Sequence record: OR844650
Source: Escherichia phage ECO103 4-12-1
Strand: one strand, 5' to 3'
DNA length: 64,000 bases
Shown: positions 40,016 through 43,721 of the stretch, in pieces
How the letters are laid out: every line of letters starts with the position of its first letter
How positions within the stretch are numbered: the first letter of the stretch is position 1
Made by a program: the position numbers and the translations under genes
Notes under the pieces: generated by a model
What the model was told of the DNA's origin: nothing
The model's database searches: none
The model's input: only the letters and a program-made list of their open reading frames with translations

Positions 40016-40318
40016 TTACATATTTGGTTCGTATTCAACATAGCAACGTGAACCTCGAACCTTTTCTTCCCAGCACTCCTGGTAAACAAGTTGACCAATT
40101 GAAACTGGTTCTCTTGATAGTCCATTACGTACTTCACCATTTTGGGTTTTATACATAAATGAACATTTGGACTCGCTACATTGTCCTAAACTAACAACTT
40201 CTGCGGTATTGTAGTGAATGTTGGTACGCTTAGTGTTCTCGTGATACTGTCCGAACCAAAGAACTCCTGCACCTAACAGAACAGTACAAATAAGACTTTT
40301 GATGTGTGTTTGAATCAT
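40016..40318 (-). CDS. small secreted/membrane Cys-containing protein
   Basis: N-terminal hydrophobic segment, 6 Cys. Confidence 0.4.
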   Translation of the reverse strand: MIQTHIKSLICTVLLGAGVLWFGQYHENTKRTNIHYNTAEVVSLGQCSESKCSFMYKTQNGEVRNGLSREPVSIGQLVYQECWEEKVRGSRCYVEYEPNM

Positions 40319-40635
40319 AATGAGTTAAATCCATTGTTTAAGTATGTTTCAATATTAATTTTACCAACAGGATTACTACTGTGAACAAAGTACTCAAACG
40401 GTTCTTTAATATTATTATCAAACATATAATCAATAAGAAACTTAGCAAAAGAATATCCAGTCTTTTCGTCTTCGCTCACATCACCCAAGTCATGGTCGAA
40501 TGATACAAATGCTGGAATTCCATTTTCAATAACATATTCACATGCACTTTTAAAGTCACGACATACCACCATATCTTGGTTTGGATAATATAGATTTGCA
40601 TCACGAATATCATCCAAAAACATTGAGTAAGACAT
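40315..40635 (-). CDS. hypothetical protein (flavodoxin/receiver-like pattern, tentative)
   Basis: FLDDIRD .. FVSFDHDLGD pattern; assignment by impression only. Confidence 0.35.
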   Translation of the reverse strand: MSYSMFLDDIRDANLYYPNQDMVVCRDFKSACEYVIENGIPAFVSFDHDLGDVSEDEKTGYSFAKFLIDYMFDNNIKEPFEYFVHSSNPVGKINIETYLNNGFNSL

Positions 40636-40644
40636 GTTAAACTC

Positions 40645-41196
40645 CTATAGATAACTAATTAGTAAGTTTTCTTTTTGAACCAGATACTCCAATTCTTGTT
40701 TTGCTGTACCGATGAAGTTCTGTGTCATAAGATTATTATATCCCGCTTCTCGATTTTGTCCCTTAGAATAACGAGAAATATGACATAAATTTACACCAGC
40801 AACTTCTGCACTTGCATGTTTAGCATTAGTGTATCCATCTCTAATGTGTTTCAACTCGTCATAGGTTACTTCATAGCTAAAACTGTGACTGTTTGCACCT
40901 GGGTAAATTTCAAAAGTTTTGAGTGGTCGAAGATGGGAAACAAAAATATTGTAATCCATTTCTTCTTGAACTTCACGACGCAACGCATATTCTAGTGAGA
41001 TATCAGTACTTTCTACGGTTCCACCACATCCACCAAGAAGACCATCCCATCGTAATTGCAGTAATACTAAATTTACTTCTGGTATATCATTCAACTCATA
41101 GTTTTTGTAAGGGTTGCATTTTCTTGCAAAGAAATAACAAAATACAAAATTTGCACGTGTGCCATATTCACCAAAGGGAACTTCTTTAACACTCAT
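40645..41196 (-). CDS. Nudix-like hydrolase (imperfect Nudix box)
   Basis: GGCGGTVE ..RREVQEEMDY: the REUxEE core is present, the upstream spacing is non-canonical. Confidence 0.4.
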   Translation of the reverse strand: MSVKEVPFGEYGTRANFVFCYFFARKCNPYKNYELNDIPEVNLVLLQLRWDGLLGGCGGTVESTDISLEYALRREVQEEMDYNIFVSHLRPLKTFEIYPGANSHSFSYEVTYDELKHIRDGYTNAKHASAEVAGVNLCHISRYSKGQNREAGYNNLMTQNFIGTAKQELEYLVQKENLLISYL

Positions 41197-41945
41197 TTCA
41201 TACGTTCCTTAATTATAGTCTCTAGATGCGGTATTGCTTTGGTTGCTGGCTTGATAACTTTTTCATTAAACAAAAAATCATTATCATTTTTACGAATGTT
41301 AACATTAACACTATAACATGGTAATGCTGCTGCTAATCTCGACCATACCAGTACTGTATCGCTACTACCAATTACAATAACTGTATCATTTTCATTAAGA
41401 GATTTCAACACATTATTTCGTTCTTCGTAAATTGGTAAGCGAATACCATCAACATAACGATGATATTCTCCAATCATTACTACATTTGGTTTAGCAAAAA
41501 CATCATGTTTTGGTATGTATGGTTCGTATCCGCAGTTAATAACATTATAATCATCGGAATTGATACTATAATTTTCAATAACTTCGCACAAGTTTCCATG
41601 AAGTTTAAGCTCATGACCACCAATACGAGTATAAAGATCGTCCATGTTAGAAGTCATATGAAGGAAGCAATCACCATATTGATCTTCTAACGATTTTATA
41701 AAATAATGCATTGCATTCGGTTCGCATTGTCCCAATTTTACACGTAATGTATTATAGAAAGAATGAACAACATGATATTTTGTAGTTAAACTAGCAATGT
41801 TACATACATCATTAATTTTAAATGTATCCCACAAACCATCATCAAATCGAAAAGGTTCCATACCACTTTCAACAGAAAGTCCTGCACCTGATATAATCAG
41901 TAATCGCTTTTTACCTTCATTGCTTATAAATTTTTCTGATATCAT
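41193..41945 (-). CDS. Sir2-family (sirtuin-like) NAD-dependent enzyme
   Basis: GAGLSVESGMEPFR..GLW, TSNMDDL and catalytic LHGN motifs; canonical 4-Cys zinc module absent; start set to ATG 41945 (TAAGGA upstream), track start is a TTG. Confidence 0.7.
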   Translation of the reverse strand: MISEKFISNEGKKRLLIISGAGLSVESGMEPFRFDDGLWDTFKINDVCNIASLTTKYHVVHSFYNTLRVKLGQCEPNAMHYFIKSLEDQYGDCFLHMTSNMDDLYTRIGGHELKLHGNLCEVIENYSINSDDYNVINCGYEPYIPKHDVFAKPNVVMIGEYHRYVDGIRLPIYEERNNVLKSLNENDTVIVIGSSDTVLVWSRLAAALPCYSVNVNIRKNDNDFLFNEKVIKPATKAIPHLETIIKERMK

Positions 41946-41954
41946 ATTCAATCC

Positions 41955-42149
41955 TTATAAAAAACCAATTAAATATATTGATAATAACAGAATGATTCCA
42001 ATATGATAGGCATACATAAAATTATTATCTTTGTGATAACCATTGGATTTCAAGTCCCTATATAAGCATTTAGTATTGTTATAAATTACAACAATAGAAA
42101 AAACTATAAAAAAACTCAAAACCCATTCATAAATTGTGTATGCCATCAT
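41955..42149 (-). CDS. small membrane protein
   Basis: 64 aa, two hydrophobic helices. Confidence 0.35.
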   Translation of the reverse strand: MMAYTIYEWVLSFFIVFSIVVIYNNTKCLYRDLKSNGYHKDNNFMYAYHIGIILLLSIYLIGFL

Positions 42150-42176
42150 CTATTCTCTCTTATAATATTAGTACTT

Positions 42177-42770
42177 TTAATATTTTAAAACATCAAACTC
42201 TTCGCTTACGCTTGTTACATTATCACTAACAATTTTAAAAATTGATTTGATACGTTCGTGTAGTGGTTTTTTAGATTCGTTCTCAACTTCAATATATGCT
42301 TGCATTGCTGCAATTGCATGATATGTCCCACTACCTACTGCGGTAATTCTTGTTTTAGGTTGTAGTACTGAAAAGTCTTCTTGAACTTCATAGATTGTAT
42401 GATTGTGGAGAATGATAAATTGTCCACCACCTACATCTTGTGATGCATCTCGTGCACCCCATTCTTCTTTAAACATTTGACGAATAATTGGAATAACTTT
42501 AAGAACCAAATATTGTGAAAATGTTTGACTAGCATCTTGTTCAGGTAAATTAAGGTTATAATTTAACAACTGACCCATACGAAATGATGTAGTATAACCC
42601 AATGCCATTACTTCTTTAGTTCTAGTTAGTCCATCATCATGTAACTTGATAAATTCTTTCTCGAATACCTTTGGTTCAGTTTGAACAGTTTTTGTAAATC
42701 CATTGCTTCCTAACTTATCCCCAGCAATAAAAGAACTTACTCCGTTAGTGTGTGCAATAATACAGGTCAT
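42177..42770 (-). CDS. HslV-like (proteasome beta-type) Ntn peptidase
   Basis: from internal ATG 42770 the protein begins MT-CIIAHTNG..IAGD like HslV (TTIV..NG..IAGD); later TAVGSGTYHAIAAMQAY matches the HslV GSGG-YA-AAA block; ATGA overlap with the upstream stop. Confidence 0.55.
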   Translation of the reverse strand: MTCIIAHTNGVSSFIAGDKLGSNGFTKTVQTEPKVFEKEFIKLHDDGLTRTKEVMALGYTTSFRMGQLLNYNLNLPEQDASQTFSQYLVLKVIPIIRQMFKEEWGARDASQDVGGGQFIILHNHTIYEVQEDFSVLQPKTRITAVGSGTYHAIAAMQAYIEVENESKKPLHERIKSIFKIVSDNVTSVSEEFDVLKY

Positions 42771-43027
42771 AAAATAGCTCCAATTGCAAATAATGTTGTG
42801 TATAAGATATAAATTAGTGCTCCTAACAACATTAGGCACACCAAGTATGAAGTTGATAGTACATAATAAATTATTGCTTCGAATTTTGAATTGAACTTCA
42901 TTGTAGTTGAATCAATAAAGCCATTACGATAATCTTTGTAAATGAAAACTGTTAGAAAAATAACTGTAGCATACATTACTACAGTAGCATAAAAAATAAT
43001 AGATGTCAAGTTTTGGATGTTTGTCAT
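42767..43027 (-). CDS. membrane protein
   Basis: 86 aa, three hydrophobic helices. Confidence 0.4.
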   Translation of the reverse strand: MTNIQNLTSIIFYATVVMYATVIFLTVFIYKDYRNGFIDSTTMKFNSKFEAIIYYVLSTSYLVCLMLLGALIYILYTTLFAIGAIL

Positions 43028-43097
43028 AGTTATATAATCTCAATATAATTAATAACAAAGGAAGTACATCATAATCATCCTGTTATTTTAATTATTT

Positions 43098-43721
43098 TTA
43101 TTGTTTGACTGAACCGTAAAAAACCAGTTCTGGTTTTGTTAATATTACAACATCTTCACCACGAGAACGACTAACTCTAAATAGAACTTCTGGTGGGATT
43201 CCATTTGCTGCATATAGTGAAAAAAGGAAACCTACCTTTGTTGCCATTTCTTCGGTAAAAGTTGATAACTGTCTTACAGACACAAATGAATTATCACCAT
43301 CAGTAACATTACTTTTAATCGAAATGTTATGAAGACCCAGTACTGAGCGATTTGTCATATATCGCTTTTCGGGAGATACACTAAAGAATACCACAGTACA
43401 TGCTGAATTGCAATACCTAGAAACAATTAAATTTATCCCATTGTCTCTAACAAAGTTTGCCATTCGAATACCTGCATCAAAATCACCACCAGGAGATGTA
43501 ATTGTGATGGTATCATAGTGTTCTTTATCATACAACTCTATCATACGCTTGAGTGACCCATCTGTAATATCTGATATGAAATATACATTTCGGGTTTCAG
43601 GATTATACTTTATCACATTTTTACTTTCAATACCAGCACTGGCTGGAAAATTTATTAACAATAGAAACATTGCTGCTTGTATCACTTCAAGCCATAGTCT
43701 TTTCATATAACAAGTCCTCAA
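43098..43721 (-). CDS. secreted ClpP/S49-like serine peptidase-fold protein
   Basis: signal peptide; TSPGGDFDAGIRMANFV resembles the ClpP INSPGG..AG block; catalytic Ser context is atypical; start uncertain. Confidence 0.4.
   Translation of the reverse strand: MRTCYMKRLWLEVIQAAMFLLLINFPASAGIESKNVIKYNPETRNVYFISDITDGSLKRMIELYDKEHYDTITITSPGGDFDAGIRMANFVRDNGINLIVSRYCNSACTVVFFSVSPEKRYMTNRSVLGLHNISIKSNVTDGDNSFVSVRQLSTFTEEMATKVGFLFSLYAANGIPPEVLFRVSRSRGEDVVILTKPELVFYGSVKQ

Follow-up and report, generated by a model that had tools for sequence, protein, structure and literature searches.

The run of minus-strand genes at positions 40016 to 43721 of a 64,000-nucleotide stretch of Escherichia phage ECO103 4-12-1 (sequence record OR844650; the entire 64-kb stretch is referred to below as the window) raises the question of which of its members, among them a sirtuin, a Nudix-like hydrolase and two peptidase-like proteins, belong to one system, and what that system does. 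A sequence-only reading had taken eight adjacent genes downstream of a divergent promoter region as one co-oriented cluster, had viewed this cluster against a T4-like module map and had suggested counter-defence through NAD+ or ADP-ribose. All eight open reading frames (ORFs) were found at or near their called positions and are annotated in near-identical phages. Profile and fold searches placed none of the proteins in an unrelated family, and all four family calls (Sir2, Nudix, HslV-like and ClpP-like) held. The observation was thereby partly confirmed: its domain calls were right, but the limits it set and its view of the genes as a single cluster were wrong.

Comparison with related phages showed that Sir2, the Nudix hydrolase, a cyclic-phosphate-processing receiver-like (cREC) domain protein, a 100-residue membrane protein (TM100) and a PIN-PhoH2 protein constitute a single block of five genes that is conserved in Rak2-like jumbo phages. 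This block crosses the lower boundary of 40016-43721 to include PIN-PhoH2. Five GenBank relatives (RaK2, Hallingskeid, 7t3, fHe-Yen9-03, and Kaldavass) were compared, and IMG/VR was scanned with an alignment of sirtuins, which yielded 80 loci, 16 of them Rak2-like, some of these duplicating GenBank phages. The order Sir2-Nudix-cREC-TM100-PhoH2 was collinear and contiguous in all five GenBank relatives and was kept in 15 of the 15 Rak2-like IMG/VR loci whose contig reaches far enough. Synteny thus bore out the co-occurrence of Sir2 and Nudix, whereas most of the relatives lacked the protease and hairpin membrane genes.

The window phage itself was placed by nucleotide comparison. Along its whole extent, the segment 40016..43931 was 99.2-99.8% identical to 17 jumbo coliphages in GenBank (G17, BF17, phAPEC6, PBECO4, slurp01 and others) and 93.5% identical to 121Q. 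The genus of phAPEC6 is Asteriusvirus and, judged by these identities, the window phage is an Asteriusvirus (a PBECO4/121Q/phAPEC6-type, Rak2-like jumbo coliphage of ~350 kb) and not T4-like, so that the T4-like frame does not apply.

In the related loci, the slot between an upstream structural gene and Sir2 contained NadM and Nampt in 15 of 16 cases, a 2H gene in 14, an HslV-like gene in four and a ClpP-like gene in only two, while the hairpin membrane genes TM86 and TM64 were confined to Asteriusvirus. These results showed that the ClpP-like, TM86, HslV-like, and TM64 genes of the window are lineage-specific cargo in a variable slot, and the eight genes did not hold together as one cluster. 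The slot was seen in loci L002-L007 and L014-L028 (for example, at 3081..6263 and 8037..8483 in L007). The 148-residue 2H protein of the relatives, encoded immediately before Sir2, matched Pfam Acb1 (PF23474, an anti-CBASS family; 1.7e-16), and Nampt and NadM make up the NARP2 pathway, which experimentally overcomes NAD+-depleting defences. In these relatives, the slot with NARP2 and the Acb1-like 2H protein is a possible anti-defence island. Homologs of NadM, Nampt and the 2H protein of the relatives were not found in the 64-kb window; all three genes are absent from Asteriusvirus (window phage and 121Q), and 2H is also absent from RaK2. A tblastn search with Nampt against all phages listed matches from every Rak2-like genus except Asteriusvirus. 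Since neither this listing nor the window search contained it, NARP2 appears to have been lost in the Asteriusvirus lineage.

The sirtuin (Sir2; 41193..41945, minus strand) starts at ATG 41945, preceded by an AAGGA ribosome-binding site, and SIR2 was the only domain found in it (PF02146; E 3.7e-20, 73 bits against a gathering (GA) threshold of 24). Its closest solved structures were CobB-type class III sirtuins (E ~1e-22), and it shares the GAGxS, NxD, and catalytic His-Gly motifs with E. coli CobB (1S5P, 6RXJ) and human SIRT5. Across nine aligned phage sirtuins, G20 and G22 of GAGxS, N100, D103, and the catalytic H116 were invariant, and the zinc-module segment (from HG to KPNVV) held no conserved Cys at all. 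Intact NAD-binding and catalytic-His motifs without a zinc module had been correctly recognized from the sequence, and absent zinc ligands in phage Sir2/CobB were noted in 2016 for KVP40-like phages (PMC5107563). Unlike CobB, the phage protein lacks zinc cysteines, has S, T or A in place of the TQN glutamine, carries a clade-specific VCN motif and does not keep the YxxR signature. Its best score against the NCBIfam CobB equivalog was 93 bits, below the cut-off of 318. The RaK2 sirtuin (L005 13816..14553) has GNG for GAG and has lost the 'FR' cofactor-loop residues that are present in the eight other aligned sirtuins; it may be inactive or have a different ligand.

The phage sirtuin clade comprised 985 phage records, including T5-like, rV5-like, and Rak2-like phages. 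The window Sir2 was 41-63% identical to the sirtuins of the five GenBank relatives and 44% identical to that of the Serratia phage BF locus (L019). About ten non-jumbo viral contigs (~40-150 kb; L059-L063, L067, L074, L090-L092) carry a sirtuin of the same clade with a Nampt homolog less than 10 kb away. With the defence SIR2 effectors ThsA, DSR1/2, SIR2-HerA, and SPARSA, the protein has the Sir2 fold and the NAD+ substrate in common. In contrast to these effectors, it has no sensor, SLOG, HerA or pAgo partner, is carried by a virulent phage, and matched none of the PADLOC defence models at E <= 0.01. This PADLOC result and the CobB-type class III identity of its nearest relatives led to rejection of the analogy with defence SIR2 effectors.

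The Nudix protein (40645..41196, minus strand) belongs to the Nudt16-like family (PF22327; E 2e-18, 67.3 bits against a GA of 27) and also matched PF00293 (2e-6). Against the PDB, X29/NUDT16 was found at 1e-11, with the REVQEE motif intact and aligned to RELEEE of X29. The phage protein could be aligned with the NUDT16/X29 U8 snoRNA-decapping family over ~145 residues and shares the REUxEE glutamates; it differs in its viral origin, in its length of 183 residues and in the replacement of the last Gly of the Nudix box by Asp. It lies outside the T4 NudE.1 clade, which decaps NAD-RNA in vitro, and is not of the ADPRase type. PADLOC gave one weak match (E 0.006). Homologs were present in 73 phage records, almost all Rak2-like, and Sir2 was annotated at the match in most of the records listed. 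Together with a 4-nt overlap between the two genes, this agrees with the earlier suggestion of an NAD+/ADP-ribose-type pair and shows the two genes to be tightly coupled. A second, ordinary Nudix gene (5072..5467, minus strand; PF00293, 1.2e-12) adjoins the CCA-adding enzyme gene elsewhere in the window.

The gene at 40315..40635 (minus strand), which the sequence-only reading had passed over among interleaved small membrane and secreted proteins, encodes cREC (PF20274; E 1.5e-22, 80.5 bits against a GA of 27); TM64, TM86, and TM100 are, by their hydrophobic segments, small membrane proteins. The motifs DD(I/L)RD, SFDHDLGD, and HSxNPVG are conserved in cREC, with the acidic receiver-like residues of DD and DHD present in six of six sequences. 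Nudix and cREC are fused into one polypeptide in Eneladusvirus-type phages and in Kaldavass (loci L002 and L003). No PADLOC model matched cREC, and single-sequence PDB searches with cREC, the HslV-like protein, and the ClpP-like protein gave only noise.

TM100 (40016..40318, minus strand; phrog_14661 at 1e-44) has an N-terminal hydrophobic anchor followed by a domain of ~65 residues in which C47, C52, C82, and C92 are invariant (C-x4-C ... C-x9-C). Its gene always directly follows cREC, and the protein was 40-58% identical across all relatives compared. It had no match to any known domain, and its family counted 20 clusters among 1.84 billion representative proteins. A lipoprotein was considered and ruled out, because the lipobox is missing before Cys11.

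PhoH2 (38516..39955, minus strand), a PhoH2-type RNA helicase/RNase that lies outside 40016-43721, is the last gene of the block and was 68-80% identical and collinear in all relatives. Both its PIN_4 domain (PF13638, 7e-20) and its PhoH domain (PF02562, 7e-44) scored over threshold. The match to the NCBIfam model 'RNA 5'-3' helicase PhoH2' (2.4e-44, 152 bits) remained below the equivalog cut-off of 680 bits; by these scores the protein has the architecture of PhoH2, but is not assigned as its ortholog. In phAPEC6, the PhoH2 ortholog gp341c was detected in virions by mass spectrometry (30.9% coverage), and gp342c-gp346c were not among the virion proteins in the portion of the published table that was covered. 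This difference suggests that PhoH2 acts at the very start of infection. In ~30 T5-like loci, a PhoH gene lies ~4 kb from Sir2 on the opposite strand.

The genes of the cluster had already been annotated, with the labels 'Sir2 NAD-dependent deacetylase,' 'nudix hydrolase,' 'HslV family peptidase,' and 'protease' in near-identical GenBank phages, and the neighbourhood has already been published as a computational prediction. Section 3.7.3 of Iyer, Burroughs, Anantharaman, and Aravind (2022; Viruses 14:1977; PMC9503650) describes a 'type 1' phage sirtuin neighbourhood, exemplified by Serratia phage BF (AQW88637.1), in which a sirtuin is combined with 2H, Nudix, and cREC as well as with a PIN endoRNase. 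There, the sirtuins are predicted to remove 2'-phosphates from RNA in a KptA-like manner, with partners that resolve cyclic phosphates or process ADP-ribose 1'',2''-cyclic phosphate (ADPr>P), and cREC is stated to be experimentally uncharacterised. The window block shares with this neighbourhood the sirtuin clade, the adjacent Nudix and cREC genes, the order Sir2-Nudix-cREC-PIN/PhoH, with the PIN_4-PhoH gene two genes downstream of cREC, and the Rak2-like phage group. In contrast to the BF locus as described there, Nudix and cREC are separate genes, a linked 2H gene is absent, and the NARP2 genes adjacent in relatives are missing. On the basis of that section, the window block is a split-gene, 2H-less form of the type 1 neighbourhood, to which it adds the cysteine-rich TM100, not mentioned in the section, and a PIN protein that is a full PhoH2, virion-associated in phAPEC6. 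The limits originally drawn for the cluster had missed both cREC, inside them, and PIN-PhoH2, outside them, two of the partners by which the section defines the neighbourhood.

That the block processes RNA ends with the use of NAD+ is the explanation tentatively preferred here, at somewhat less than an even chance. The zinc-less sirtuin would move ADP-ribose from NAD+ onto an RNA 2'-phosphate, as Tpt1/KptA does, with release of nicotinamide and ADP-ribose 1'',2''-cyclic phosphate. The cREC protein would open the cyclic phosphate on RNA ends, on this by-product, or on both, and the Nudt16-like Nudix protein would cleave the pyrophosphate to AMP and ribose phosphate. Virion-delivered PhoH2, with its RNA helicase and PIN RNase, would supply or clear the RNA substrates, and kinase and ligase steps could fall to the T4-type Pnkp, Rnl1 and CCA-adding enzyme whose genes lie elsewhere in the window, with the HslV-like and ClpP-like peptidases acting independently of the block. 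The narrower proposal, that the zinc-less sirtuin is a nucleic-acid-directed enzyme that strips or ADP-ribosylates phosphorylated RNA ends in a 'yeast-style' 2'-phosphate repair, is possible but doubtful.

Several lines of evidence point in this direction. The strict coupling of Sir2, Nudix, and cREC suggests one pathway acting on one NAD+-derived product; the features counted as functional linkage include the Nudix-cREC fusion and the 4-nt overlaps of Sir2 with Nudix and of cREC with TM100. ADP-ribose 1'',2''-cyclic phosphate is the by-product of Tpt1-type 2'-phosphate removal. Because both a pyrophosphate, as target of Nudix, and a cyclic phosphate, as target of cREC if its predicted activity holds, are needed, the product would be this compound and not O-acyl-ADP-ribose. 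The sirtuins also retain the catalytic N, D, and H, while the zinc module, which gives the acyl-lysine cleft its shape, is gone throughout the clade. An RNA substrate is favoured by the RNA-decapping Nudix subfamily, by PhoH2, by the ligase linkage in rV5-like phages, and by the RNA-repair genes of the window. In the unrelated rV5-like phage bov10K2, genes for an Rnl1-type ligase, cREC, and Sir2 stand in a row, with a polynucleotide kinase and a phosphoesterase divergent from them and tRNA genes nearby; this reproduces the second configuration of PMC9503650. The RNA-repair and translation-rescue set of the window, all on the minus strand, comprises a T4-type Rnl1 (59109..60248; PF09511 and T4_Rnl1_C), a T4-type Pnkp (57080..58009; kinase and HAD phosphatase), a CCA-adding enzyme (5582..6691; PolyA_pol head), a Pth2-like peptidyl-tRNA hydrolase (51991..52401), and a calcineurin-like phosphoesterase (48551..49339). 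The proposed chemistry is the same as that of the Tpt1/KptA pathway, which operates with a 2H cyclic phosphodiesterase and Macro or Nudix clean-up, and both have accompanying genes for a cyclic-phosphate esterase and a pyrophosphatase. The transferase of the window, however, has a sirtuin (Rossmann) fold and not an ART fold, and a search of the Sir2 protein for an ART-fold KptA domain found only SIR2, so that the resemblance is an analogy of gene context and not homology.

A number of observations weigh against RNA-end processing. A tRNA scan of the 64-kb window found no tRNA gene, the window phage has no 2H gene, and Rnl1 and Pnkp are encoded 15-19 kb from the block and not inside it. Repair by T4-type Pnkp and Rnl1 requires no 2'-phosphate removal. 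In relatives, the genes next to the block have a counter-defence role that is proven or assigned at family level (NARP2, Acb1-like), the changes in the RaK2 sirtuin indicate that enzymatic activity may not be universal in the clade, and the argument from cREC is partly circular in that it rests on a predicted activity. The collinearity is in part general synteny of related jumbo phages, and the 7t3-like lineage (L007, at 9250..9618; L014, L016-L018) tolerates an ORF of 122 residues between Sir2 and Nudix that breaks their 4-nt overlap. The role of TM100 is left unexplained by the model. Literature searches for experiments on this phage sirtuin clade or on cREC proteins retrieved none; what they yielded was computational work, plus a single in-silico/qPCR study.

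Two published ideas assign other substrates to such proteins: generation or degradation of ADP-ribose signals (Iyer et al., 2021; PMC7824862) and CobB-like deacetylation of host enzymes (PMC5107563). In a reading related to the first, Sir2, Nudix, and cREC would serve counter-defence, by binding and destroying immune messengers derived from NAD+ or toxic forms of ADP-ribose (ADPr-1''P, ADPr>P, isomers of cyclic ADPR), or by ADP-ribosylating a host defence factor, beside NARP2, which rebuilds NAD+, and Acb1, which degrades cyclic oligonucleotides, in relatives. This is rather unlikely, although the gene context makes the counter-defence proposed in the sequence-only reading plausible: Nampt and NadM are the direct upstream neighbours at 15 of the 16 loci, an Acb1-family gene stands just before Sir2 in 14 of 16, NARP2 defeats NAD+-depleting defences in experiments, the association of Sir2 with Nampt recurs in the ten or so non-jumbo contigs, and degradation of cADPr-type signals by cREC and Nudix was proposed in PMC7824862. 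The association with Nampt is, however, explained equally well by nicotinamide recycling for any NAD+-consuming enzyme, and NAD+ consumption by a sirtuin opposes NAD+ rescue. In the PADLOC search, moreover, the sirtuin resembled neither defence-type SIR2 nor any known sponge or anti-Thoeris protein, so that the analogy with defence Sir2 proteins, unlike the contextual argument, is not supported, and the Nudix subfamily and PhoH2 point toward RNA. The window lineage has lost NARP2 and 2H yet keeps the block, which argues that the block is independent of both. In a reading related to the second idea, Sir2 would be a host-takeover modifier, either a CobB-like lysine deacylase, activating for example acetyl-CoA synthetase, or a protein mono-ADP-ribosyltransferase, with Nudix and cREC only clearing O-acyl-ADP-ribose or ADP-ribose. 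The nearest sequence relatives are indeed CobB/Sirt5-type deacylases, the GenBank label is cobB, and such a role was proposed for the Sir2 of KVP40-like phages, whose rather late expression was measured at 20 min (PMC5107563). Protein modification is nevertheless improbable: the zinc module, half of the acyl-lysine cleft, is lost throughout the clade, together with the TQN glutamine; the YxxR signature and the CobB equivalog score speak against it as well; no Macro or ARH partner was present; and deacylation would leave the linkage to cREC, PhoH2, and the rV5-like RNA ligase unexplained.

It is very improbable that all eight genes, including the proteases and membrane proteins, form one system under the divergent promoter, and this explanation has been largely refuted by the phyletic patterns. 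The genes are indeed tightly spaced, with three 4-nt overlaps (Sir2/Nudix, cREC/TM100, and TM86/HslV-like) and remaining gaps of 3-70 nt. A strong promoter-like site lies upstream and the next strong terminator-like site only at 38134. Two minus-strand sigma-70-like matches were found upstream of the ClpP-like gene, at 43742..43861 (TTGACA-17-TATGAT, with TG, at 43861..43833, and TTGACT-17-TATTAT at 43770..43742), and the first strong terminator-like site downstream of PhoH2 is a minus-strand hairpin at 38134..38155 (9-bp stem, 5 GC pairs, T-run), a consensus match only. The total of 45 promoter matches in the region was not above the 40.6 ± 5.2 in shuffled sequences, and the scan is weak support for one transcription unit. 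In fEgEco12 (~77% nucleotide identity), every ORF of the cluster is kept: nine ORFs, including PhoH2, are intact and of equal length, with TM64 one residue shorter, which indicates that the small membrane ORFs are real genes. Amino-acid identities in this comparison diverged, however, from 95% for PhoH2, 90% for Sir2, 88% for HslV-like, 83% for TM100, 82% for cREC, and 78% for Nudix to 64% for TM86, 51% for ClpP-like, and 50% for TM64. Most of the relatives with a Sir2 block lack the protease and hairpin genes, and in T5-like and Vibrio phages the HslV-like gene is not adjacent to Sir2. Co-orientation, which had been taken as evidence of a cluster, is background and uninformative, because the minus strand carries 85 of the window's 91 ORFs of at least 100 residues. 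The gene at 43932..44309 (plus strand), which encodes a 125-residue protein and is apparently the sole genuine plus-strand gene around the cluster, is absent from fEgEco12, so that the 'divergent promoter region' is not conserved; in the published phAPEC6 virion data covered here, its counterpart gp347 is a virion protein (75% coverage).

The HslV-like protein (42177..42770, minus strand) is accessory and lies outside the conserved block. Its identification as an N-terminal-threonine peptidase, also correctly made from the sequence, was supported by profile and structure matches to HslV. In a 35-sequence family alignment, Met1-Thr2, D18, K34, and G146-S-G148 were invariant; they correspond to Thr1/Asp17/Lys33/Gly-Ser-Gly, the set present in HslV and in the beta subunits of proteasomes. 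The family profile matched HslV in the PDB at 2e-7, and an AF2 model (pLDDT 93.3) matched HslV and BPH in Foldseek at 1e-9, with a probability of 1.0 for HslV. Pfam gave no significant match, PADLOC models gave none, and the score against the NCBIfam HslV equivalog was 20 bits, below the cut-off of 137. The phage protein has the fold of HslV (ClpQ) and of BPH, an orphan homologue of the proteasome (TM 0.6-0.75), and, like HslV, it has no propeptide; in contrast to both, it has only 14-20% identity to them, falls below the Pfam Proteasome cut-off, carries a TTSFRMGQ motif, and has an insertion at residues 38-56. Unlike HslV, it has no annotated HslU partner, as had been noted: a check of annotation only showed no AAA+ unfoldase, of HslU type or otherwise, in the window region, and the peptidase probably needs a host unfoldase. 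Phage records with a member of the family numbered 196; in the T5-like phages among them, the gene lies between thymidylate synthase and RNase H, ~10 kb from Sir2; in Vibrio phage 1.101.O it is near PhoH and ribonucleotide reductase.

The phage HslV-like gene also differs from hslV in that a small membrane-protein gene usually stands just before it. In the window this is TM86 (42767..43027, minus strand), an 86-residue two-helix hairpin protein with two hydrophobic segments. The hairpin protein TM64 (41955..42149, minus strand; 64 residues, two hydrophobic segments) is, by the comparisons above, lineage-specific and fast-evolving. Small hairpin membrane ORFs preceded the HslV-like gene in L007, L013, L014, L016, and L018, and membrane-protein genes in this position include those at 6752..6991 in L007, 8225..8506 in L014, 8069..8311 in L016, and 4594..4902 in L009. 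Such a gene was present in all jumbo loci examined and in the T5-like phage atrejo, but not in Vibrio phage 1.101.O. An obligate pair of hairpin and HslV-like proteins, suggested by the jumbo and T5-like phages, was rejected, as the pair is absent in the Vibrio phage and RaK2 has a hairpin homolog without an HslV-like gene.

The ClpP-like gene (minus strand), an accessory and fast-evolving gene identified by fold search, had been placed at 43098..43721 as encoding a signal-peptide-bearing ClpP/S49-like protein. The ClpP fold stood, but the start did not: ATG 43706, with a GAGGA ribosome-binding site, is likelier than TTG 43721, which gives 43098..43706 for this protein, which resembles serine peptidases and begins with a hydrophobic leader. 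By sequence, its matches were below threshold (Pfam 0.004, 17.4 bits against a GA of 20.2; NCBIfam 1.3e-5; PDB profile 2.9e-4), and PADLOC models gave no match. Its AF2 model (pLDDT 91.7) matched ClpP in Foldseek at 5e-9 with a probability of 1.0 (TM 0.6-0.7). S71, G73, G74, C99, S101, C103, and H126 are invariant. In alignments with ClpP, SPGG corresponds to the oxyanion loop, S101 to the Ser, and H126 to the His, the triad Asp is not conserved, and C99 and C103 flank the putative catalytic Ser101. Residues 4-22, with an invariant Glu7, are hydrophobic and are followed by PASAG; from this pattern the leader could be a cleaved signal or a membrane anchor, and the protein probably sits in the envelope. 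It has the ClpP fold, SPGG, Ser, and His in common with clan SK proteins (ClpP, NfeD, COG3904 'periplasmic ClpP-class'), from which it differs in its leader, the cysteines flanking Ser, the unconserved triad Asp, and its sub-threshold scores; its far bacterial relatives carry the label 'COG3904 family.' The family comprised 48 phage records, nearly all from Rak2-like jumbo phages. In RaK2 and Hallingskeid, the gene lies upstream of NARP2, several kb from Sir2.

A canonical ClpP is encoded nearby (46989..47681, minus strand; PF00574, E 4e-41, 141 bits) and carries the GenBank label 'head maturation protease.' Three chambered-protease-type subunits, the HslV-like, the leader-bearing ClpP-like and this canonical ClpP, are thus encoded within 5 kb, with no AAA+ unfoldase annotated in the window. 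A dCMP-deaminase gene (44592..45083, minus strand) flanks the cluster, and in E9.1 a second deaminase-like gene is annotated ~10 kb away.

The window adds to the published neighbourhood a natural 'minimal' variant of the block, with neither 2H nor NARP2, and the observation that TM100 and PhoH2 travel with the block, and it makes the HslV-like and ClpP-like peptidases questions separate from that of the Sir2 block; none of these additions changes what is known. If a counter-defence function proved right, the block would represent a new NAD-centred module next to NARP2 and Acb1. If the sirtuin is instead directed at nucleic acids, it would become the first known example of a sirtuin acting on RNA, cREC would receive its first assigned activity, and the virion-injected PhoH2 and the orphan, cysteine-rich TM100 would be dedicated partners. 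The Sir2 clade is very widespread in phages, and the Asteriusvirus lineage offers a minimal variant for testing its function. Should the published prediction be right, sirtuins would gain RNA as a class of substrate, and phages a new escape from RNA-cleaving host defences.

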